A DNA stretch of 31,946 bases from Candidatus Iainarchaeum sp. (lineage in GTDB: Archaea > Iainarchaeota > Iainarchaeia > Iainarchaeales > CSSED10-239), in contig CALBUD010000049.1 in NCBI GenBank assembly GCA_937968065.1, positions 1-31,946 of the forward strand, in the 5' to 3' direction. This document shows, piece after piece, positions 21,829-31,770 of this stretch (position 1 is the stretch's first letter; the number at the start of each line of letters is the position of its first letter). The translations under genes and the position numbers were made by a program. The notes below the pieces were generated by a model. The model saw nothing but the letters and a program-made list of their open reading frames with translations. It was not told the DNA's origin and made no database searches.

Positions 21829-22815
21829 TTATTTAGTAATTATATTTAAATCTGTTAAAGTTAATTTTGTTCTTGGTTTTCTATTAGATTTTCTTAAAGC
21901 TAAAACTCTTTTTGAAACTCCAGGTACACTTCCTGCAATTATTATAAATGGGTTTTTTACAATTCCATAGTTTTTAAATCCTGATTTTATATTTACTTTA
22001 TTAGGATCTTTTTCTATCATCAAAAGTTTTTTTACAAAAGAAGTTCTATTATGAAAACCATGTTGTCCTGCTCTTGGAACAGTGTGCATTATTGTTGCTG
22101 GATGCCAAGGACCAATTGACCCTACATGTCTTTGTATTTGTTGAGCTTTTGGTCTTTGTATTTTTATACCAAATCTTTTTACAGGACCTGTAAATCCATG
22201 TCCTTTAGTTATTGATTTAACATCTAAATTAGTGTCAATTTCAAAAGCTTCAGAAATAGAAATGGTTTTATTAATTTTTTCTTTAAAATAATTTATCTTA
22301 TCTTCAAAATTTCCAGAAAGCATAATTTCAACTAAAACAGGTTTTTTTTGTCCAATTGTTGTAAGCTTAGTATCAACATAGCATAAAAGAACTAAGTCGT
22401 CTGCTTTTTCTTTATTTTTTAAAAAATCTTCTAGATCTTTTTTCTTAGTTGATTTTTTTCCTTTAATTTTTTTTAGAAGAAGAGAATTAAAATTTAAATA
22501 TTCAGAAACAGTATTTTTTCCTGTAATTGGCTTGTTTTTCTTATAAAATCTTGCTCCTACAACTTTTAATTCAGGAGTTTCAACAACCGTTACTGGAACA
22601 ACAATTTCATGGCCATAAGAAGATGAGTTTTTATGAGCATCTTTTGCTGTTATTTGCATCATACCAACCTTAAGACCATAAAAAGAAATTGGTTTACAAA
22701 CAGTTAAATCGTTTTCAACACCATTATATGAATTAAACTTAGGAATTATTGATTTAGCTTTTACTCTTGGGTAAAAAGCCATAGATCCTTCTCTTGGTTT
22801 ATATTTTTTAGGCAT
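21829..22815 (-). CDS. rpl3: ribosomal protein uL3
   Basis: Contains PREGSMAFYPRVKA...KGHGFTGPVKRFGIKIQRPKAQQ...PRAGQHGFHNRT. It is the first gene of the array. Confidence 0.93.
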   Translation of the reverse strand: MPKKYKPREGSMAFYPRVKAKSIIPKFNSYNGVENDLTVCKPISFYGLKVGMMQITAKDAHKNSSSYGHEIVVPVTVVETPELKVVGARFYKKNKPITGKNTVSEYLNFNSLLLKKIKGKKSTKKKDLEDFLKNKEKADDLVLLCYVDTKLTTIGQKKPVLVEIMLSGNFEDKINYFKEKINKTISISEAFEIDTNLDVKSITKGHGFTGPVKRFGIKIQRPKAQQIQRHVGSIGPWHPATIMHTVPRAGQHGFHNRTSFVKKLLMIEKDPNKVNIKSGFKNYGIVKNPFIIIAGSVPGVSKRVLALRKSNRKPRTKLTLTDLNIITK

Positions 22816-23085: not shown

Positions 23086-26000
23086 TTAATTTTTAATATC
23101 TAGTGTTTCAAGTTCTTTTAAAGTTACTTGTTTTGTATTTATATCTTCTTCTTCAACTATAGATGTTTTTAGATCCAAATTTTCTTTTTTAACTACATTT
23201 TCTTCTACATTATCTGTAACTTTATCTTTCTTCTTTGAATAACGTCTTGAGATAAAATATATTAATAAAGCTATTAATAATATTAAGATGACAAATAAAA
23301 TAATATCTGAAGCTGTTTTAAAAGAAAAGAATCCTGTTAAAATACCAGGTTTATCAACTTCTTTTAAATTATATTCACCTTCTTTAATTATTTGATATGT
23401 ATCTAAATCATATATTTTATATTTTAGATTTGATAAATCATCATATTTTATTTTATAATTTTTAGAAACTTCAGTAAAAGCATCTACCCCAAATTCTAAA
23501 TCTCCTTGAATTTCAAAACTATTTACATCTTCAAAAGAAATTAAAAGATTTTTTTGTAAACTAGAAGAATTGTTTATAGTTAAAGTTAATAAAACTGTTT
23601 TATCTTCATCTAAAACATTTTCAATAACTGATGAGATTAAAAGTTCTTTTTCAACAATTCCTCTATCTATTAAAAAAGGTTCTTTTAAGATTAATCTTCC
23701 AAGGTTATATATCTCTATATATCCATTATATTCATTTAAATAACTATTGTCTGGTATAATTATTCCAAAATAAATGTTTTTAGTCATAGAGGGAGATAAT
23801 AAAAATTCATTTTTGTTTTCTGCTTCTGTAAATATATTTTTATTTAACATATTTTCAGATTTAACAAAAACAAAATCTTCTGGAAATCCAGAAAATTTAA
23901 CTTCAATTGTTTTGTTTTCAAAAGAAGTATTTTTTAAACTAAAATTACTTGTTATTCTTTTGTCATTTGAAGATATTTTTGAAACATATGTTGTAAAATA
24001 AATCTCTTGGTCTGAAGATGTCACTGGATAAAGATTTGTAAAATAAGAGATTGGCTCACAACCATTAAAAGTAACTGTATAAATTACATTTTTTGGATTT
24101 TTAATATTTAATAAATCTATTTGTTTTGAAAAATTATCATAACCAGATAAAGGTATTATTGGTTCTTGAATAACAGCACCAGTTGAAGTTACTTTTATAG
24201 AACCTGTTTTATTAGTTAGATTTTTAAAAGATATTTGTACAAAATCATTATCTAAAGAAATATATTTTGAATTTGGATAATTTAAAGTAAAATCACAAGA
24301 GTTTTCAAAAGAATATTGTTCAAAAGTAAAAAAACCTGATTTTGTATCTTTATAATCACAAGAAACTCCATTTGAAAATAAACCTTTTGCTAAAAGTTCA
24401 AAAGAACCAGGATTAGATGTTCCAACTCTAATTGTTCTTTGTGAATTTTTAGGTAAAAATAAAGATTTATCAATAATATTTATATTTGTGTTTCTTCTAT
24501 TTTCAAAAATAACATCATTTAATGAAAAATCTACAGAAGAATTATTATAAATGGTTATAAAATTTTCTCCATCTTTAAAATAAGAATCATTAAAACCTAT
24601 ATTTGAACAAATTGAATCTTTGTTTATTAAGATATTATAGTTAGTGTTAATTGCTGAATAAGAACAAAAATCACCATTTTCAAAATTACCTTGAATAGAT
24701 ATATTTCCAACAGAAGTTATATTTGATGGAATATTTGTTGTTCTTATATCAAAATTTAAAGAAGTATCTGATTTAGGGTAGATTGTATAATTTATAGGTT
24801 TTGGAAAAATATCTGTATAAAGAGTGTTATCTGTGTGATTTATTCCTGTTATTGTAAATTTTTTATTAGAATTATTAAAAATATAAAAACCATTTTCTTT
24901 TGAAAAATTAGTTTGTGTTTTTTCTTGTAAATTTAAATTTCTTGTAAAAATAGTTATATCTTTACATTCATTTGAAACAAAATTTTGAGAAGTTGGAGAT
25001 ACTCTTACAGTTATTGTTTCATTTATTCTACATCTTTTATCTTCTCTATTTTCTCTTTTTAAAAAACCTTCAACTCTTAAAGTTAAATTTTCTGTTTTTA
25101 AAAAATCAGTTTTTCCTGATCTTACATTAAAAGTTAATGATTTTTTAGAATCTTCATATATTCTAAAAATACTATTTCTTAAAGAAACATCTAAAATAGA
25201 ATTGCTTGGTTTATCTATTCTTATATTTTCAACTTCAAAATAATAATCTAAAGATTTGTTTAAAACATCTATTTCAAAAGATTTATTATCATTTGAAGAA
25301 ATATTAAAATAATTATTTGAAATTCTTAAATCACTACACTCTGCTGTATTTGGAAGATAACTATCATTTATTCTATATCTTACGTTATATACCTTTTCAC
25401 AAGTTAAATTTTCATATTTTCCAATAACTCTTATATCAAAAAAGTTAGTGTATGTTGAAGAAACAGTATCTGCAAATAAATCTATTTGTGCACTTCTTGT
25501 TTGATAAGGAGATATTGTAAAAGGATAAGAAATGTTTTCAATTTTAAGGTTTGTTGGGTTTATAGGGTTTGTTGTAACTGAAGTTATGTTTAGTGGTTTG
25601 TCTATAGTATTTATTATATACAAATTATAAAAATCTCTTTTATCTTCTGTTAAATAAATATCAGAAAATCCAGAAACATAAAAATCATCACAAGTCGGAA
25701 TATTTTGTGGAGGAGTTGGAGGAATCAGAGGAGTTGTTGAACCACCTGTTGTTCCTTGTGAATAAATATATGAACTTGTTGTTGTTTGATAAGTTCCATC
25801 TGATGATTGAAGATCTAAAACAACTTCATAAGATTGATAAGAAGGATCAAAATAAAACATAGGGTTATATGAATAAACATAGTTTGAATAAGGAGATAAA
25901 ATGAAAGAATGTGTTTGTATGTTATGAACAAAAATTCTTTGACCAAAAGGATTTATTCCATAAACTTTAGGTGACACAATTACATTTACAGGAGATGCAA

Positions 26001-26184
26001 AATTAGTTCCATATATTGAATATCTTAAATCTATTGTATCATATACATCTGCATATTGATATGGCATGTAGATTGGATGTGAAGATGTTCTTACATGTGC
26101 ATAATCAAAACCAATTGTGTATGCTGTAATTGCATTTGATAAAATTATTATTGAAAAAAACAATAACAAATATTTAAATTTCAT
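23086..26184 (-). CDS. large secreted, C-terminally membrane-anchored surface protein (S-layer/adhesin-like, repetitive beta-sandwich-type modules)
   Basis: It has an N-terminal signal peptide MKFKYLLLFFSIIILSNAITA. The roughly 950-aa body is Asn/Ser/Thr/Tyr-rich with many N-x-S/T sequons and recurring strand patterns such as F-x-I-x-N-x-S (YIFNNSNKKFTI, ITIYNNSSVDFSL, LTLTINNSSSL). A single C-terminal TM segment DIILFVILILLIALLIYFI is followed by RRYSKKK and a 54-aa charged tail. GGGGT lies before the ATG. Confidence 0.75.
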   Translation of the reverse strand: MKFKYLLLFFSIIILSNAITAYTIGFDYAHVRTSSHPIYMPYQYADVYDTIDLRYSIYGTNFASPVNVIVSPKVYGINPFGQRIFVHNIQTHSFILSPYSNYVYSYNPMFYFDPSYQSYEVVLDLQSSDGTYQTTTSSYIYSQGTTGGSTTPLIPPTPPQNIPTCDDFYVSGFSDIYLTEDKRDFYNLYIINTIDKPLNITSVTTNPINPTNLKIENISYPFTISPYQTRSAQIDLFADTVSSTYTNFFDIRVIGKYENLTCEKVYNVRYRINDSYLPNTAECSDLRISNNYFNISSNDNKSFEIDVLNKSLDYYFEVENIRIDKPSNSILDVSLRNSIFRIYEDSKKSLTFNVRSGKTDFLKTENLTLRVEGFLKRENREDKRCRINETITVRVSPTSQNFVSNECKDITIFTRNLNLQEKTQTNFSKENGFYIFNNSNKKFTITGINHTDNTLYTDIFPKPINYTIYPKSDTSLNFDIRTTNIPSNITSVGNISIQGNFENGDFCSYSAINTNYNILINKDSICSNIGFNDSYFKDGENFITIYNNSSVDFSLNDVIFENRRNTNINIIDKSLFLPKNSQRTIRVGTSNPGSFELLAKGLFSNGVSCDYKDTKSGFFTFEQYSFENSCDFTLNYPNSKYISLDNDFVQISFKNLTNKTGSIKVTSTGAVIQEPIIPLSGYDNFSKQIDLLNIKNPKNVIYTVTFNGCEPISYFTNLYPVTSSDQEIYFTTYVSKISSNDKRITSNFSLKNTSFENKTIEVKFSGFPEDFVFVKSENMLNKNIFTEAENKNEFLLSPSMTKNIYFGIIIPDNSYLNEYNGYIEIYNLGRLILKEPFLIDRGIVEKELLISSVIENVLDEDKTVLLTLTINNSSSLQKNLLISFEDVNSFEIQGDLEFGVDAFTEVSKNYKIKYDDLSNLKYKIYDLDTYQIIKEGEYNLKEVDKPGILTGFFSFKTASDIILFVILILLIALLIYFISRRYSKKKDKVTDNVEENVVKKENLDLKTSIVEEEDINTKQVTLKELETLDIKN

Positions 26185-26224
26185 AAAATAACCCCTTTTT
26201 TTTTCTTAAATCTTATATAAAAAA

Positions 26225-26605
26225 TTATTGCCAACTAAATGAAACTCTAGTGTTTGGATTTACATAACTTATAGTGTTATAATTATAGTAAGTTGGATAA
26301 GTATATGTTGAATAACTATAACTTGGATAAGTATATGTTGAATAATATGAATTAACATAACTTGTGTATGTTGGAGTAATATACCCTGTATAAGGACTTA
26401 CATATCCTGAAGGATAATAGTATCCATAATCATAGTAACTGTTATAATAAGGTACATTTGGATAATATGGATAATTATAACTTACATTTGAATAAGATAT
26501 GTCAGTAACATCAAATCTTTTTGCAGCATCTACAGATATAGATACAAAAACAAGTGCAATTAAAATCATTAAAACACCTAGAATATTAATATATATTTTT
26601 TTCAT
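26225..26605 (-). CDS. small secreted or membrane-tethered tyrosine-rich low-complexity protein
   Basis: I moved the start to ATG 26605, which is preceded by GAGGTGA. The signal/anchor is MKKIYINILGVLMILIALVFVSISVDA. In the mature part I counted about 30 Tyr in about 99 residues (YNYPYYPNVPYYNSYYDYGYYYPSGY...). A 30-bp tandem duplication at 26291-26350 encodes Y-S-T-Y-T-Y-P units. Confidence 0.7.
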   Translation of the reverse strand: MKKIYINILGVLMILIALVFVSISVDAAKRFDVTDISYSNVSYNYPYYPNVPYYNSYYDYGYYYPSGYVSPYTGYITPTYTSYVNSYYSTYTYPSYSYSTYTYPTYYNYNTISYVNPNTRVSFSWQ

Positions 26606-26800
26606 ATACCCTTTCACCTCATATATTTTGTATATATATTTAGAGACAAATAGTTTATAAATGTTTTTAATTTAATAACTGAACGTAATTATCTACAAAA
26701 GGTATTAAAAAACAAATATTTTTTTAATAAAAAAAAAACAAACATCTTTAAATATATAATCATATATAGTAATATATAGAAAAATAAAAAAAGAATATCT

Positions 26801-27190
26801 ATGGTTGATCAATCTCAAAATATTTATCAAGATATTAAAGCATTACAGTCAAGCATTTTAGTTTTAAGACAAAAAATAAAATATCTTGTGCATAATGAAA
26901 AAATATTAGGTAGAAATATACTGGTTTTAAACAAAAAGATAGCTTCTGCTAATTTTTCTGGAAATGGAGATTCTGAAATTTCTAATGAAAAAATAGAAAA
27001 AATATTAAATACTTTAGAAAATCTAGATTCAAGAATAAAAGGAATTGAATCAACACTTGAAATGTTTTCAAAAAGATATGCAAGAGCAGAAGATTTAAAA
27101 GAAATGAAATATGTTATTGATAACATAAATCCTTTAGAGTATACAACTATTGAACAAGTTAAAAAAATCATTAAAGAAGAAAGTAAATGA
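26801..27190 (+). CDS. hypothetical coiled-coil protein (129 aa)
   Basis: The plus strand is A-rich here, as coding strands are in the rest of the window, and shows heptad-like Leu/Ile spacing. The competing minus-strand ORF is Phe/Ser-rich antisense shadow. A TATA-like CTTTAAATATATA lies about 40 nt upstream. Confidence 0.6.
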   Translation: MVDQSQNIYQDIKALQSSILVLRQKIKYLVHNEKILGRNILVLNKKIASANFSGNGDSEISNEKIEKILNTLENLDSRIKGIESTLEMFSKRYARAEDLKEMKYVIDNINPLEYTTIEQVKKIIKEESK

Positions 27191-27483
27191 ACTTATTCGA
27201 TTTTAGACAAAAATGGAATGAAGATAGTGTTTTAGCAAAAAAAAGAAAAGAACTTTTATGTGCGTCTAAAATTACTAATTCTCAAAAAATAAAATTAAAC
27301 TTATTAAATATTGAATTTTTAAAAGATGTTATAGCTGTTTCTAATGATCAAAGAAAAATTAATCAAAGTTTTAGAGAGATTTTAAGACTTAAGAGAAGTA
27401 ATACAGAAATTAAAAAAAAAATTGCTTTTAATAAAAAAATAAAATCTGCTTCTAAAAAACCAAAGATAAAAAGAAAAAGATAA
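27187..27483 (+). CDS. hypothetical basic protein (98 aa) with a poly-Lys/Arg C-terminus
   Basis: It has an ATGA start/stop overlap with the upstream ORF. The C-terminus is KKIKSASKKPKIKRKR. I recognised no family. Confidence 0.5.
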   Translation: MNLFDFRQKWNEDSVLAKKRKELLCASKITNSQKIKLNLLNIEFLKDVIAVSNDQRKINQSFREILRLKRSNTEIKKKIAFNKKIKSASKKPKIKRKR

Positions 27484-28026
27484 TTATTTAAAACTAGTTT
27501 TTAAAAATAAATAATAGGTTCCAATAACTATTATTATTAAGAATAATCTAAATAAAAAACCATGGAAAAAATCTGCAACAGATAGATCTAAAGAAACTAT
27601 TAAAAAGATTGTAAAAGTTATTCTTAAAAAATTAAAAAAGATTACTACTAAAAAAGATAAAAAGATCCATTTTATCTTTTGTTTAAAAGAAATGCCTAGG
27701 GTTGAAATGATAGCACTAAAAATCAAAGAAAATTCTAAAATACCTGTGCATAAAAAAACAATAGCTACAGGAAACTCTAAAGAAGGAATTATTAAGAAAG
27801 TTGTTTTTTCTATAAAATCATAATAAAAAGTAGAAGGTATATTATAAAAAATATTTAATAATTTACTTGACATTGATCCAAAGAAATAGTTTATGCCGTA
27901 ATAAATAATTGTCTTTGAAAGAACTAAATAAATAGAAATAAAAGAAATTAAAAAATAAATTAAAAAAAGAAAAGATTCTTTTAATTTCTTTTTATTTTTT
28001 AAATCTTTTTTTATTTTTTTAAACAT
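27484..28026 (-). CDS. minimal exosortase/archaeosortase-family membrane protein (putative sorting transpeptidase)
   Basis: 180 aa, about 5 TM segments. The ordered motifs are AIVFLCTGILEFS (family signature x-x-C-S/T-G), then about 40 residues later FFNFLRITF (N-x-x-R-I), then DFFHGFLFR (His/Arg). This is the Cys/Arg/His arrangement of EpsH/ArtA-type enzymes. It starts 9 nt after the eS8 stop. Confidence 0.55.
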   Translation of the reverse strand: MFKKIKKDLKNKKKLKESFLFLIYFLISFISIYLVLSKTIIYYGINYFFGSMSSKLLNIFYNIPSTFYYDFIEKTTFLIIPSLEFPVAIVFLCTGILEFSLIFSAIISTLGISFKQKIKWIFLSFLVVIFFNFLRITFTIFLIVSLDLSVADFFHGFLFRLFLIIIVIGTYYLFLKTSFK

Positions 28027-28035
28027 ATTAAAATA

Positions 28036-28431
28036 CTATTTTAACAAGACTGCAGTAACTTGTCCTGATTGACCAGGTCTTGAAGTTACTTTTGCTTTAT
28101 GTTCTTTACCATTAACATCAACAATAATAATTGAACCTTTTGTAATTACTTTTTGTCTTACAAAATGTTTATTTGCATTATTTTCTATAACATTTAAAAC
28201 TTTTGTTTTAAAGGTTTTTTCTTTATCAGAGATTAAAACATTTAAAACTTTGGTAATTTTTACTTTTTCATTACCGCCTCTTATTTTTTCTTTATGTCTT
28301 TTATCTTCAGTATCAACAATTGTTTTTGTAAATGTTCCACCTCTATCACTTAAGGATTTTGTTTTAGCATTTACAGAATTATTTATACCACCTGTTTTTT
28401 TTCTTTTTGATTTTTTAATCCATTCAACCAT
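28036..28431 (-). CDS. rps8e: ribosomal protein eS8 (S8e)
   Basis: Contains KSKRKKTGG...RGGNEKVKI...NANKHFVRQKVITKGSII...KVTSRPGQSGQVTAVLLK. Confidence 0.9.
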   Translation of the reverse strand: MVEWIKKSKRKKTGGINNSVNAKTKSLSDRGGTFTKTIVDTEDKRHKEKIRGGNEKVKITKVLNVLISDKEKTFKTKVLNVIENNANKHFVRQKVITKGSIIIVDVNGKEHKAKVTSRPGQSGQVTAVLLK

Positions 28432-29029: not shown

Positions 29030-29698
29030 TTAAAATTCTCTTTCAAAAAGATATTTTATTTTTTCTGCTTTTTTAGGTCCTAGTTTTGGAACCTTTCTTA
29101 ATTCCTTTACATCTGCATTAGATATTTTTTTAATACTTTTAAATTCTTTTAAAATTGATTTTGCAAGAGTTGGGCCAACATCTGGAAAAGATTGCATTAT
29201 AAATAATTGCCAGTCAGAAACATTCATTTTTGTTTTTGAATATCTTAATTTTAATTCATTATTTCCATTACCAATCTGTTCTTTTTTAGAAATTATAAAA
29301 AGAAATAAAGCTGTTTCTTTTTGATTTTTTGTAAAAAAAATAGGAATTCTGTAATTAAGACCAATTGAAGTTAAAAGGCCAATCATTGCTTTTTTATTAA
29401 GTCTTGCAGAATCTGAAAAAAGTTTAGATAAATCACCTTCAACTATTAATGCTGATCTTTTAATTTTTATAAGTTCTTGAAGTTGAGAAAAAATTCTACC
29501 ATCAATTATTGAAGTTTCTAAATCACTAATAGTTTTTCTTTCAATAACAATATCATCAGTTATTTGATAGTCTCCTACAGATAATTGTTCCATTATTAAT
29601 TTTATTTTTAAATTTTCTGTTGAAAGAGAAGATAATTCAGATAAAACAGAAGACGCATTCTCTCTTGTATCGCAAATAATTGTTATTTCTTTTGACAT
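29030..29698 (-). CDS. ERCC4-type (XPF/Hef) structure-specific endonuclease with C-terminal (HhH)2
   Basis: Contains DTRE...VGDYQITDDIVIERKTISDLETSIIDGRIFSQ (the GDxn-ERKxxxD active-site signature). The tail has two helix-hairpin-helix motifs (FPDVGPTLAKSIL, VPKLGPKKAEKI). GTGAT lies before the ATG. Confidence 0.85.
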   Translation of the reverse strand: MSKEITIICDTRENASSVLSELSSLSTENLKIKLIMEQLSVGDYQITDDIVIERKTISDLETSIIDGRIFSQLQELIKIKRSALIVEGDLSKLFSDSARLNKKAMIGLLTSIGLNYRIPIFFTKNQKETALFLFIISKKEQIGNGNNELKLRYSKTKMNVSDWQLFIMQSFPDVGPTLAKSILKEFKSIKKISNADVKELRKVPKLGPKKAEKIKYLFEREF

Positions 29699-29708
29699 TT
29701 AAAATCAC

Positions 29709-30167
29709 TTATACTAATTTAGGCCTTATTATTCCACCATGAAAAAAACCAGAATAAATTGTTTCGCCCTTATAATCAATTCTTTCTTTTCCAATAAATT
29801 TTTCAATATTTCCATTAACATCTGAAAAATATTCAAAATCATTTTCTTTATAGATGTTTGGGCCTCTAAAAGGAAATCTTTCTTCAACATTTAATAAAGC
29901 TTTTTTTAAAAAATCATAAATTTCTTTTTCTAAAATTAAATGAGTTTCTATAAAACCATAATAGTTTAAAGACCAAATAAAATTATCTTTTTCAAAAATA
30001 ATCTCTTGTCCTGAAAAAGGGTTATATCCATAATATTTATCAACATACTTATAATTTTCTTTTTCATAAATTAACTCTTTTGAACCATCTTTATTTAATT
30101 TATCTGTTATACGAGAAGATGCATAAGTGTTTTTTTTAGCTTCTATTAAAAAATCAATAAATTCCAT
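29709..30167 (-). CDS. DUF5680-like conserved protein of unknown function
   Basis: I moved the start to ATG 30167 (MEFIDFL), which is preceded by AAGGAGGA; the track start is TTG. The pattern FL-x-x-AK-x-x-TYA ... Y-x-D-x-Y-x-G-x-x-x-F-x-G-x-E ... W-x-x-N-Y-Y-G ... FLK-x-AL ... PFRGP ... F-x-G-x-E-x-I ... FHGG matches my recollection of that family. Confidence 0.5.
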   Translation of the reverse strand: MEFIDFLIEAKKNTYASSRITDKLNKDGSKELIYEKENYKYVDKYYGYNPFSGQEIIFEKDNFIWSLNYYGFIETHLILEKEIYDFLKKALLNVEERFPFRGPNIYKENDFEYFSDVNGNIEKFIGKERIDYKGETIYSGFFHGGIIRPKLV

Positions 30168-30183
30168 GTTTTTTCCTCCTTTT

Positions 30184-31770
30184 TTAAAAATCAACTATTG
30201 TTTTTTGAACTTTTTTCTTTTTAGAATCTTTTAAAAAATCTTTTTTTGACATATTAATTAAATTTTTATTCATAGTTTTTTCTTTTTTTAAAGATACAAA
30301 ATAATAATGTTCATCAATAGTATCTTTGTTTAAAAGAATAACAACTTTTCCTGCATTAAATCTTCCTGTTCTTCCTCTTCTTTGTATGGATCTTATCTCA
30401 GAAGGAACAGCATCATAAAAAATAACTAAATCAACAGAAGGTATGTCAAGACCTTCTTCACCTACAGAAGTGCATACTAAAACATTGAAGACACCCTCTT
30501 TAAAATCAGAAATTATTTTAGATTGTTCTTTTTGAGATAATCCTTTATCTTTTTCTTTACTTGCTTGTCCTACAAATCTTGCAGCAGAAACCCCTTCTTG
30601 ATTATTTAAAATAAAAGTTAAATGTTGAGCACAATCTCTAAAATTATTAAATATTAAAATTTTTGAATTTTTATTGTTTTTTAAAAAAGTGGTTGTAAGA
30701 GAAAGAATTTCTTTTTCTTTAGAATATAAGTCTTTTTTTAAATCTAAATTAACAAGTAAAGAATAAACCTCTAATATTTCTTTAGAATTTACAAACTGAT
30801 GAATAGTTTTTGTTGTTTTAGAAGATTTAGACTCTACAAATATTTTTTCTAAATAATTTTTTAAAGGTAAAAAACCTTGAGTTTCAATTAATTCTTTTGC
30901 ATGATATGCTTTTAAAGCAAGAGAAGTGTTTATTAAAGCTACAAAATTTAAAGAATTTTTAGATTTTTCAAGTCTTTTGAATAATAAGTGTTGAATCATA
31001 AGAATTTGTTTTTTTGTAAAATTATTTGAGATAGATATATTTAATTTTCTTAAAATATTTATTTTTTTAAAAATAAAAAAATCTAAGATTTTAGATATTT
31101 TTTTTGAAATTAAATCAAGCTCTACAAAAATAGTTTCTATTTCTATTTCTTTAATATAATCTATAACATCAATATCTTTATCTGTTCTTATCTCTATATG
31201 ATTTATTTTTAAATTATCTGCAACCTCTTTAATTTTTGTTTTATTATGTCCTGGAGATGCTGTTAAAGCTAATCTTTTTGTTTTTTCTGAAAAAAAAGAA
31301 GAGATTGAAACATAAGCATAATCACCTATCGCTCTATGAGCTTCATCAAAAATAATTAAATTAAAATTTTCTTTTTTTAAAAGATTATTTTTAATATCAT
31401 TATTTATTGTTTGAGGAGTTGCACAGATTATTTGTCCTTTTTTTGAATAAATTTCTTTTCTTTTTTCTGGAAGAATTTGTCCAGTTAATAATATTATCTT
31501 TTCTAAAGAAATATCTAAAACTTTTTCTAAAGATTTTTTATGTTGAGAAACTAAAGGTTTTGTTGGAGCTAATAAAATTATTGATTTTGAAGCATCATAA
31601 ACAGAACCTATAAGTAAAGCCGCAATAATTGTTTTTCCAAGACCAGTTGGAGCTACAACTAAAGTATTTGCATCAATTGCTTTTGCAGTTAAAAGCTCTT
31701 GATATAATCTTTTTTCTACAATATTTTTTTTAATATTTGGAAAAGAGATAAATTTATCTTCAATTGACAT
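30184..31770 (-). CDS. hef: Hef/FANCM/Mph1-type superfamily-2 DNA helicase (helicase half of Hef)
   Basis: Motif I APTGLGKT, Ia LAPTKPLV, II DEAH, III TASPG, an inserted helical domain, V TSVGEEGLDIP and VI QRRGRTGR. It stands in the same operon as an ERCC4 nuclease. Confidence 0.85.
   Translation of the reverse strand: MSIEDKFISFPNIKKNIVEKRLYQELLTAKAIDANTLVVAPTGLGKTIIAALLIGSVYDASKSIILLAPTKPLVSQHKKSLEKVLDISLEKIILLTGQILPEKRKEIYSKKGQIICATPQTINNDIKNNLLKKENFNLIIFDEAHRAIGDYAYVSISSFFSEKTKRLALTASPGHNKTKIKEVADNLKINHIEIRTDKDIDVIDYIKEIEIETIFVELDLISKKISKILDFFIFKKINILRKLNISISNNFTKKQILMIQHLLFKRLEKSKNSLNFVALINTSLALKAYHAKELIETQGFLPLKNYLEKIFVESKSSKTTKTIHQFVNSKEILEVYSLLVNLDLKKDLYSKEKEILSLTTTFLKNNKNSKILIFNNFRDCAQHLTFILNNQEGVSAARFVGQASKEKDKGLSQKEQSKIISDFKEGVFNVLVCTSVGEEGLDIPSVDLVIFYDAVPSEIRSIQRRGRTGRFNAGKVVILLNKDTIDEHYYFVSLKKEKTMNKNLINMSKKDFLKDSKKKKVQKTIVDF

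Follow-up and report, generated by a model that had tools for sequence, protein, structure and literature searches.

Does a cluster of five genes that interrupts the ribosomal-protein array of a DPANN archaeon encode a single system for building the cell envelope? The genes, lettered A to E here, lie in a stretch of 31,946 nucleotides (nt) from Candidatus Iainarchaeum sp. (GenBank assembly GCA_937968065.1, contig CALBUD010000049.1), and this whole stretch is referred to as the window. Most DPANN archaea have yet to be cultured, and little of their envelopes has been characterised (PMC6098224). An earlier note on the window had joined the five genes into one functional unit, consisting of a giant anchored surface protein (A), a tyrosine-rich secreted mini-protein (B), two coupled orphan proteins (C and D), and a sortase-like membrane enzyme (E). 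We found that the five-gene module as a whole was only partly supported. By our estimate (probability about 0.6), the core of the locus is made up of two genes, perhaps three, in which E, a miniature archaeosortase, processes or anchors its cognate main surface protein A, with B as a possible accessory and with C and D as bystanders.

All five open reading frames (ORFs) described in the earlier note were present. The window has a GC content of about 25% and is occupied almost entirely by the archaeal ribosomal-protein super-operon on the minus strand, together with SecY, aIF2/5B, RpoD, and one tRNA-Leu. Genes A to E fill the sole gap in this ribosomal array, which extends from rps8e to rpl3, and the description of the cluster as flanked by translation genes on both sides (S8e and L3) was correct. 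Past S8e, the next genes encode Cgi121 and an XPF nuclease. The nearest genomes were those of Candidatus Forterrea multitransposorum (complete, 839,632 bp) and of Ca. Iainarchaeum/ainarchaeum, the latter being metagenome-assembled genomes. These belong to the Iainarchaeota (Diapherotrites) within DPANN, in agreement with the reduced-genome setting that had been proposed. The paper describing the Forterrea genome makes no mention of the locus (PMC5905446).

The membrane enzyme encoded by gene E

Hydropathy analysis of E revealed hydrophobic stretches over most of residues 15-179, with a basic N-terminus ahead of them, indicating a polytopic membrane protein. When E was compared with NCBIfam, it matched the archaeosortase model TIGR04178 at 41.6 bits (cut-off 23, expect value 1.2e-10). 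The named subfamily models all remained under their cut-offs, the best of these weak matches being heimdallarchaeosortase (20.1 bits, cut-off 130) and ArtD (9.5 bits, cut-off 125), with pacearchaeosortase also at 9.5 bits (cut-off 80). Judged by its sequence, E is a true protein of the exosortase/archaeosortase family, and it was placed in an unnamed subfamily because TIGR04178 was passed while every named subfamily stayed far under its cut-off. A search of Pfam returned zero matches to E at an expect value of 1 or less, the sortase domain included, and PF09721 is precomputed for many E homologues. No solved structure was found for E. The proposal of a sortase-like enzyme was therefore right as to a membrane family of processing enzymes, in the form of an archaeosortase, and wrong as to a sortase.

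Conservation was examined at two depths. Forty homologues of about 180 amino acids (aa) shared 44-76% identity with E, and an alignment of 15 close sequences showed Cys93, Arg135, His155, and Arg160 to be invariant. When 1.84 billion representative proteins were searched with a profile, 519 relatives were found, mostly of 160-220 aa. In 41 distant relatives (23-44% identity), Cys93, Asn132, Arg135, and His155 were invariant and Arg160 was nearly so. All 41 matched TIGR04178, with only scattered weak matches to the named subfamilies. In ArtA of Haloferax, Cys173, Arg214, and Arg253 are essential (PMC9263693). The E residues were equated with the ArtA positions by order and spacing, not by direct alignment, and the four residues invariant among close sequences are candidate catalytic residues. 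As E starts 9 nt after rps8e on the same strand, the two genes are probably co-transcribed.

Neither an exact look-up nor a search for near-identical entries recovered the E protein of the window from a collection of 15 billion proteins, and the best match there shared 75-76% identity with it. The other four proteins of this contig (A to D) were present in this collection. It seems that E was left uncalled in the source annotation, though its ORF is intact and aligns over its full length with homologues. Among the matches to the E profile was a protein of 1102 aa (P0212), whose N-terminal archaeosortase domain (residues 6-182) is joined to about 900 aa of non-membrane sequence containing Ala/Gly/Ser-rich stretches. 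This protein could be an enzyme-substrate or enzyme-partner fusion.

The surface protein A, its sorting signal, and gene B

Related loci were collected as nine contexts reached via E homologues and as 15 GTDB genomes, giving a sample of 24 loci. S8e and E were adjacent in 24/24 loci, and C followed E in every locus with enough DNA. A homologue of A (27-55% identity) was located 0.6-3.3 kb downstream of E in 14/14 distinct lineages for which the DNA reached far enough. Four loci (L007, L018, L019, and L021) showed no rpl3 in the fetched DNA downstream of A, and there, too, A was near E and C; the genes after A in L007 were other large ORFs.

The description of A as a giant anchored surface protein with a sorting-like C-terminus was borne out, as A carries a signal peptide, a conserved tripartite signal, and a C-terminal transmembrane (TM) helix. 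Proteins of the A family share the element [ST][GA][FL][FL]x[FL] outside this helix, followed by about 5 residues, the helix itself, and a K/R cluster. This signature occurred 14 times in the 12,623 residues of 13 A-family proteins, and only one occurrence was outside the signal. Conservation was poor in the 30 residues upstream, where the top-residue frequency averaged 0.31. When ORFs of at least 100 aa in the window and the 24 loci (about 400 kb) were scanned for the combination of motif, TM helix, and basic cluster, 20 of the 509 passed, and these were from the A family only. The distant members of the family (L007, L018, L019, L021, and P0050) end straight after the helix with RKR, RRK, or RKK. 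An architecture of signature, TM helix, and basic cluster defines archaeosortase substrates (PMC6098224). We judged the A signal to be genuine on the grounds of its retention in 13/13 proteins, its rarity elsewhere, the poor conservation upstream of it, its specificity in the scan, and its C-terminal position in distant members. Five A-family signals were also scanned alone with curated CTERM models (PGF-, PEF-, IPTL-, Loki-, Heimdall-, and PACE-CTERM, and LPXTG). None of the models reached its cut-off, and the matches were confined to the TM/basic part; the A signal is therefore uncatalogued.

In the clade of the window, the signal is not at the extreme C-terminus and is followed by a tail of about 40-55 aa with a variable linker. 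The tails of eight close A homologues end in [KR][QE][IV][TS][LF]x[ED][LV][DE]. According to the accounts given in PMC6098224 and PMC9263693 of the work of Abdul Halim 2017, ArtA processes a signal that is not located at the C-terminus, and with this precedent the tail of A would be no obstacle to cleavage.

The AlphaFold2 model of A was all-beta, with about eight tandem beta-sandwich domains and a predicted local distance difference test score (pLDDT) of 70-90 for residues 280-940. Ten cysteines (Cys165, 262, 283, 385, 407, 507, 526, 609, 630, and 709) were invariant or nearly so across the family. They make up five pairs, and each of five consecutive beta-sandwich domains opens and closes with one. 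Their spacing at domain starts and ends suggests one disulfide per domain. N-x-S/T sequons were modestly enriched, with 26 in A versus 18.9 +/- 3.7 in shuffles. No significant family or match to A was found in Pfam, NCBIfam, or PDB sequences, and the 10 A homologues recovered were all annotated as 'hypothetical' or left unnamed. Foldseek with the model of A returned tandem immunoglobulin (Ig)-like/MG/ASH-type proteins, for example hydin-like ciliary proteins and alpha-2-macroglobulins. The attempt to identify A by sequence or fold was dropped, since there was no PDB sequence match and the Foldseek matches were generic tandem beta-sandwich proteins only. The modelled string of beta-sandwich domains gives A a likeness to known archaeal surface-layer (S-layer) proteins. 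Secretion, a multi-domain beta-sandwich build, and a membrane anchor were all found in A, and similarity to a known S-layer family was not. Taken with the model, A fits an archaeal S-layer-type glycoprotein, and it may also be an adhesin.

The description of B as a tyrosine-rich secreted mini-protein also held. The likely start of B is the ATG at 26605, located behind a Shine-Dalgarno-like site (GAGGTGA), and the same form is found in the public protein collection. A gap of 40 nt separates B from A, which lies downstream of it on the same strand. Proteins of the B family contain 22-26% Tyr, with a conserved FDVTDISYSYVSY at the N-terminus and SFSWQ at the C-terminus. Among the 14 lineages that keep A, B was a separate gene in eight and missing in six. 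The Tyr content of the A N-domain was 9-15% where B was present and 12-22% where it was absent, and the sole A without an N-domain (in L014) was accompanied by B. This pattern hints at a role shared between B and the A N-domain, with few evolutionary events behind it. We considered whether B was a paralogue split off from the A N-domain. The hhalign probability was 82%, with a match mostly to the signal peptide, and the BLAST matches between B and the A N-domain all vanished under composition-based statistics; homology was rejected and the compositional parallel retained. It is plausible that B serves as an accessory of A present in part of the clade.

Gene order, bystander genes, and competing explanations

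The orientations of the genes point to three transcription units, namely S8e-E, C-D, and B-A. E and D abut tail to tail, and the distance from E to A is 1.3 kb. The coupled genes C and D overlap by 4 nt (ATGA). No hydrophobic segment, either a signal peptide or a TM helix, was detected by hydropathy in C or D. The identity of C across loci was 60-83% versus 44-75% for E, and 115 C homologues were recovered. In distant Diapherotrites, where C was found at 42-50% identity, it is divergently oriented beside DNA polymerase B (PolB) and methionine aminopeptidase, and none of E, A, and S8e occurred within 10 kb. An identity for C was sought and abandoned, as Pfam and NCBIfam gave only coiled-coil noise and the model consisted of long helices with no PDB fold match. 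No match was found for D. D was confined to the closest clade at 33-37% identity; elsewhere its slot was empty or held unrelated genes, such as MarC. D and the conserved motif of the A tail occur in the same single clade, and this was the one observation that linked either C or D to the envelope. As far as sequences can tell, C would be a lineage-wide cytoplasmic bystander that is conserved like a housekeeping gene, and D would be clade-specific, both being cytoplasmic neighbours retained by synteny. An ORF of 114 aa antisense to C (26827-27171, minus strand) shares its strand with E, B, and A and is open in relatives. Resampling of synonymous codons in C gave an antisense open stretch of 106 +/- 11 codons versus 120 observed (P=0.28). 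The ORF was therefore rejected as a by-product of the composition of C and is probably not a gene.

Table 1. Positions of genes A to E, of the signal and candidate catalytic features within them, and of the flanking ribosomal-protein genes in the window.
Feature	Position	Strand	Description or basis
Gene A	23086..26184	-	1032 aa, signal peptide, one C-terminal TM helix (I961-I978); hydropathy
Signature T950-G-F-F-S-F955 of A	23320..23337	-	Motif in 13/13 distinct A-family proteins
TM helix of A, about I961-S979	23248..23304	-	Kyte-Doolittle peak 3.36; helix 958-984 in model
Basic cluster RRYSKKKDK (R980-K988) of A	23221..23247	-	Read from sequence; K/R cluster after TM helix in every family member
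44-aa charged tail of A, predicted cytoplasmic	23089..23220	-	Only in the clade of the window
Tail-end motif K1018-QVTLKELE of A (residues 1018-1026)	23107-23133	-	Kept by eight close homologues
Gene B	26225..26605 (ORF 26225-26617)	-	126 aa, signal peptide, 25% Tyr, low complexity
Gene C	26801..27190	+	129-aa predicted cytoplasmic coiled-coil protein, highly conserved
Gene D	27187..27483	+	98 aa, very basic (29 K+R), translationally coupled to C
Gene E	27484..28026	-	180 aa, polytopic membrane protein, exosortase/archaeosortase family
Candidate catalytic Cys93 of E	27748-27750	-	Conservation
Candidate catalytic Arg135 of E	27622-27624	-	Conservation
Candidate catalytic His155 of E	27562-27564	-	Conservation
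Candidate catalytic Arg160 of E	27547-27549	-	Conservation
rps8e	28036..28431	-	PF01201 at 6e-24 and TIGR00307; directly upstream of E
rpl3 (L3)	21829-22815	-	Flank on the A side of the gap

In the mechanism that we propose, E, whose expression together with rps8e is probably constitutive, would act as a polytopic membrane cysteine endopeptidase/transpeptidase, and A would be its cognate and possibly its sole substrate. A would be exported by the Sec pathway as a chain of about eight Ig-like beta-sandwich domains and would form the main cell coat, as an S-layer-type or attachment layer. The C-terminal helix would first hold A in the membrane. E would recognise (S/T)(G/A)FF at the outer end of the helix, cleave there, and, by analogy with Haloferax ArtA, transfer mature A to a membrane lipid. 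In the clade of the window, the helix and the cytoplasmic tail of 44 aa would be left behind after cleavage. B would probably act together with the Tyr-rich N-domain of A at the outer face.

Several points weigh against this proposal. Synteny extends equally to all the housekeeping genes on the flanks (enolase, L1-L10-L12, Hef helicase, DUF5680, XPF, and Cgi121), and because the whole region is conserved in this way, adjacency by itself is weak evidence. E and A are in different transcription units, with oppositely oriented genes between them. The conserved end of the A tail suggests an uncleaved, TM-anchored form of A with a function of its own. The signal scan covers the window and the 24 loci, and E may have other substrates or a many-to-one relation with them. 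The Foldseek matches of the A model are generic, with TM-scores of 0.1-0.15, and only the size, fold class, and position of A point to an S-layer. The similarity of B to the A N-domain is gone after composition correction. What the sequences show is that E belongs to its family and that both the signal and the gene order are conserved; from these we infer that A is cleaved, anchored to lipid, and part of an S-layer, and that B may have a role.

The first alternative keeps E and A as the proposed pair and makes A a host-cell adhesin or a nutrient-scavenging protein of an episymbiont, not a lattice S-layer. A evolves fast (27-55% identity versus 57-83% for ribosomal proteins), the structures that match it best are tandem Ig/MG-domain proteins that form no lattice, and Forterrea is predicted to be symbiotic (PMC5905446). 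However, S-layer proteins are likewise fast-evolving and built of Ig-like domains, and no adhesin-type domain was found in A with Pfam or NCBIfam. Moreover, A is a single conserved copy at a fixed and probably highly expressed site by the ribosomal operon, as is typical of a main envelope protein. We regard this alternative as somewhat unlikely.

Inherited synteny may instead account for the whole arrangement. A would then be a type I protein that stays in the membrane by its TM helix for good, such as a host-attachment adhesin with a functional cytoplasmic tail, and E would process proteins encoded elsewhere or nothing nearby. The adjacency of genes in a region that is syntenic throughout is not independent evidence, E is paired with rps8e and not with A, and a tail of 44 aa with a conserved terminal motif is unusual for a discarded signal. 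The Forterrea genome is also reported to encode other very large membrane-anchored proteins, which are potential substrates (PMC5905446). Against this stands the conservation of (S/T)(G/A)FF, which is far better than that of its surroundings in lineages at 27-55% overall identity and for which a plain anchor has no evident need. In addition, the distant members display a textbook C-terminal tripartite signal, and A remains near E even in those loci where rpl3 was not found downstream of A. An explanation by synteny was thus considered unlikely.

A further possibility extends the pairing of E and A to a minimal coat system of Forterrea-like Iainarchaeota that would have a fixed place by the ribosomal operons and three parts, made up of E as a new subfamily, A with its new (S/T)(G/A)FF signal, and B, which would be either a separate protein or functionally replaced by the Tyr-rich N-domain of A. 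In the clade of the window, where the signal is internal, cleavage would free a membrane stub whose conserved end is perhaps read by D, coupling envelope assembly to the cytoplasm. We hold this full version to be doubtful and offer it as speculation.

Although homologues of E, C, B, and A adjoin in the clade of the window and in several sister lineages, and although the occurrence of D and the A tail motif in the same clade makes a D-tail interaction conceivable, a five-gene envelope module with A as surface protein, B as matrix or cross-linker, C and D as coupled assembly factors, and E as processing enzyme is very improbable, as neither C nor D has a signal peptide or a TM segment, C is found next to PolB in distant Diapherotrites with neither E nor A nearby and shows the conservation of a housekeeping gene, most lineages either lack D or have another gene in its place, B is absent in 6/14, and the genes fall into three transcription units in two orientations. 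The neighbourhood comparison called for in the earlier note therefore gave a divided answer. The genes do adjoin in the sampled related genomes, but D is limited to one clade, B is not constant, and C is found elsewhere beside PolB, and the claim of one functional unit could not be upheld.

Other features were observed in and around these loci. The Hef-type helicase (30184-31770), the DUF5680 gene (29709-30194), and the XPF/ERCC4 nuclease (29030-29698) are three separate genes on the minus strand of the window. This arrangement is kept in closer relatives, and the DUF5680 gene is missing from some distant loci (L007, L008, and L009). At positions 446-2600 of locus L004 (ENA ERZ27315652, contig k141_270571), bAvd-like and reverse-transcriptase (RVT_1) genes were present just upstream of Cgi121 and rps8e, and these look like a diversity-generating retroelement beside the locus. 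Another clade of small archaeosortases (GC 31-58%) was represented by L029, L034, L035, L044, L046, L047, L049, L051, L054, and L056-L058. In most of its loci, the enzyme is located between a conserved gene pair (one product of about 760 aa or longer, the other of about 785 aa) and a large co-oriented ORF. This large ORF usually exceeds 1100 aa and reaches at least 2600 aa, and most run past the fetched DNA. The few that were complete (for example in L044, 1016 aa) had no C-terminal TM helix.

Relation to known systems and meaning for the DPANN envelope

The system of Haloferax ArtA resembles the proposed pair in several respects. Both enzymes belong to the TIGR04178 superfamily, and the Cys and Arg residues of E are like Cys173, Arg214, and Arg253 of ArtA. 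Both systems have a tripartite signal, the proposed substrate A is a large multi-Ig-domain protein, and ArtA offers the precedent of a signal away from the extreme C-terminus. Unlike ArtA, E has 180 aa, and TIGR04125 was not reported for it at an expect value of 1 or less. The signature of A is (S/T)(G/A)FF, not PGF, and its signal is followed by a tail of 44 aa with a conserved end. E also has one visible substrate, encoded 1.3 kb away, and both genes lie by ribosomal genes.

Similar in concept is pacearchaeosortase (NF033505) with the putative S-layer protein PACE-CTERM (NF033506), in which a DPANN enzyme of about 167 aa has a dedicated putative target. E scored far below the 80 bits required by NF033505, the A-family signals scored about 8 bits versus the 110 of NF033506, and full-length A had no match. 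That system is from Pacearchaeota and has another signal, whereas the present one is from Iainarchaeota. Heimdallarchaeosortase (NF045528) with Heimdall-CTERM (NF045529), ArtD, and ArtE are likewise small variants with lineage-specific C-terminal signals. The Heimdall-CTERM model reached at most 15.4 bits on the A-family signals versus its cut-off of 24, and matched the TM part only.

Bacterial sortase and its LPXTG substrates offer a functional parallel, comprising a membrane cysteine transpeptidase and a C-terminal tripartite signal that are often encoded together. E has no sequence relationship to sortase and gave no match in the Pfam search, and the LPXTG anchor model touched only the TM part of the A-family signals, under its cut-off. 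To our knowledge, archaea have no peptidoglycan to serve as an acceptor. The SlaA/SlaB operon of Sulfolobus is similar in that a large and a small secreted envelope protein are encoded side by side, like A and B. The Sulfolobus S-layer is anchored through a TM segment of its small subunit and does not involve an archaeosortase (PMC6098224), whereas here the anchor belongs to the large protein A, and B, apart from its signal peptide, lacks a TM helix.

The claim that such a combination had not been described in DPANN archaea was too strong. The novelty of the locus is modest, because NCBIfam already lists the DPANN pair of pacearchaeosortase and the PACE-CTERM S-layer protein. What is new is the archaeosortase subfamily and the sorting signal; the kind of system is known, with DPANN and Asgard analogues in NCBIfam, and the general understanding of archaeosortase systems is left unchanged by this locus. 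The unclassified subfamily and its signal are currently missed by annotation pipelines, and in the collections searched none of the proteins A to D has been given a functional name. The envelopes of DPANN archaea mediate the contact with the host on which these reduced cells are thought to depend. For cells of the Forterrea/Iainarchaeum type, the locus provides a concrete candidate for the main surface protein, together with its likely anchoring enzyme and the recognition motif.

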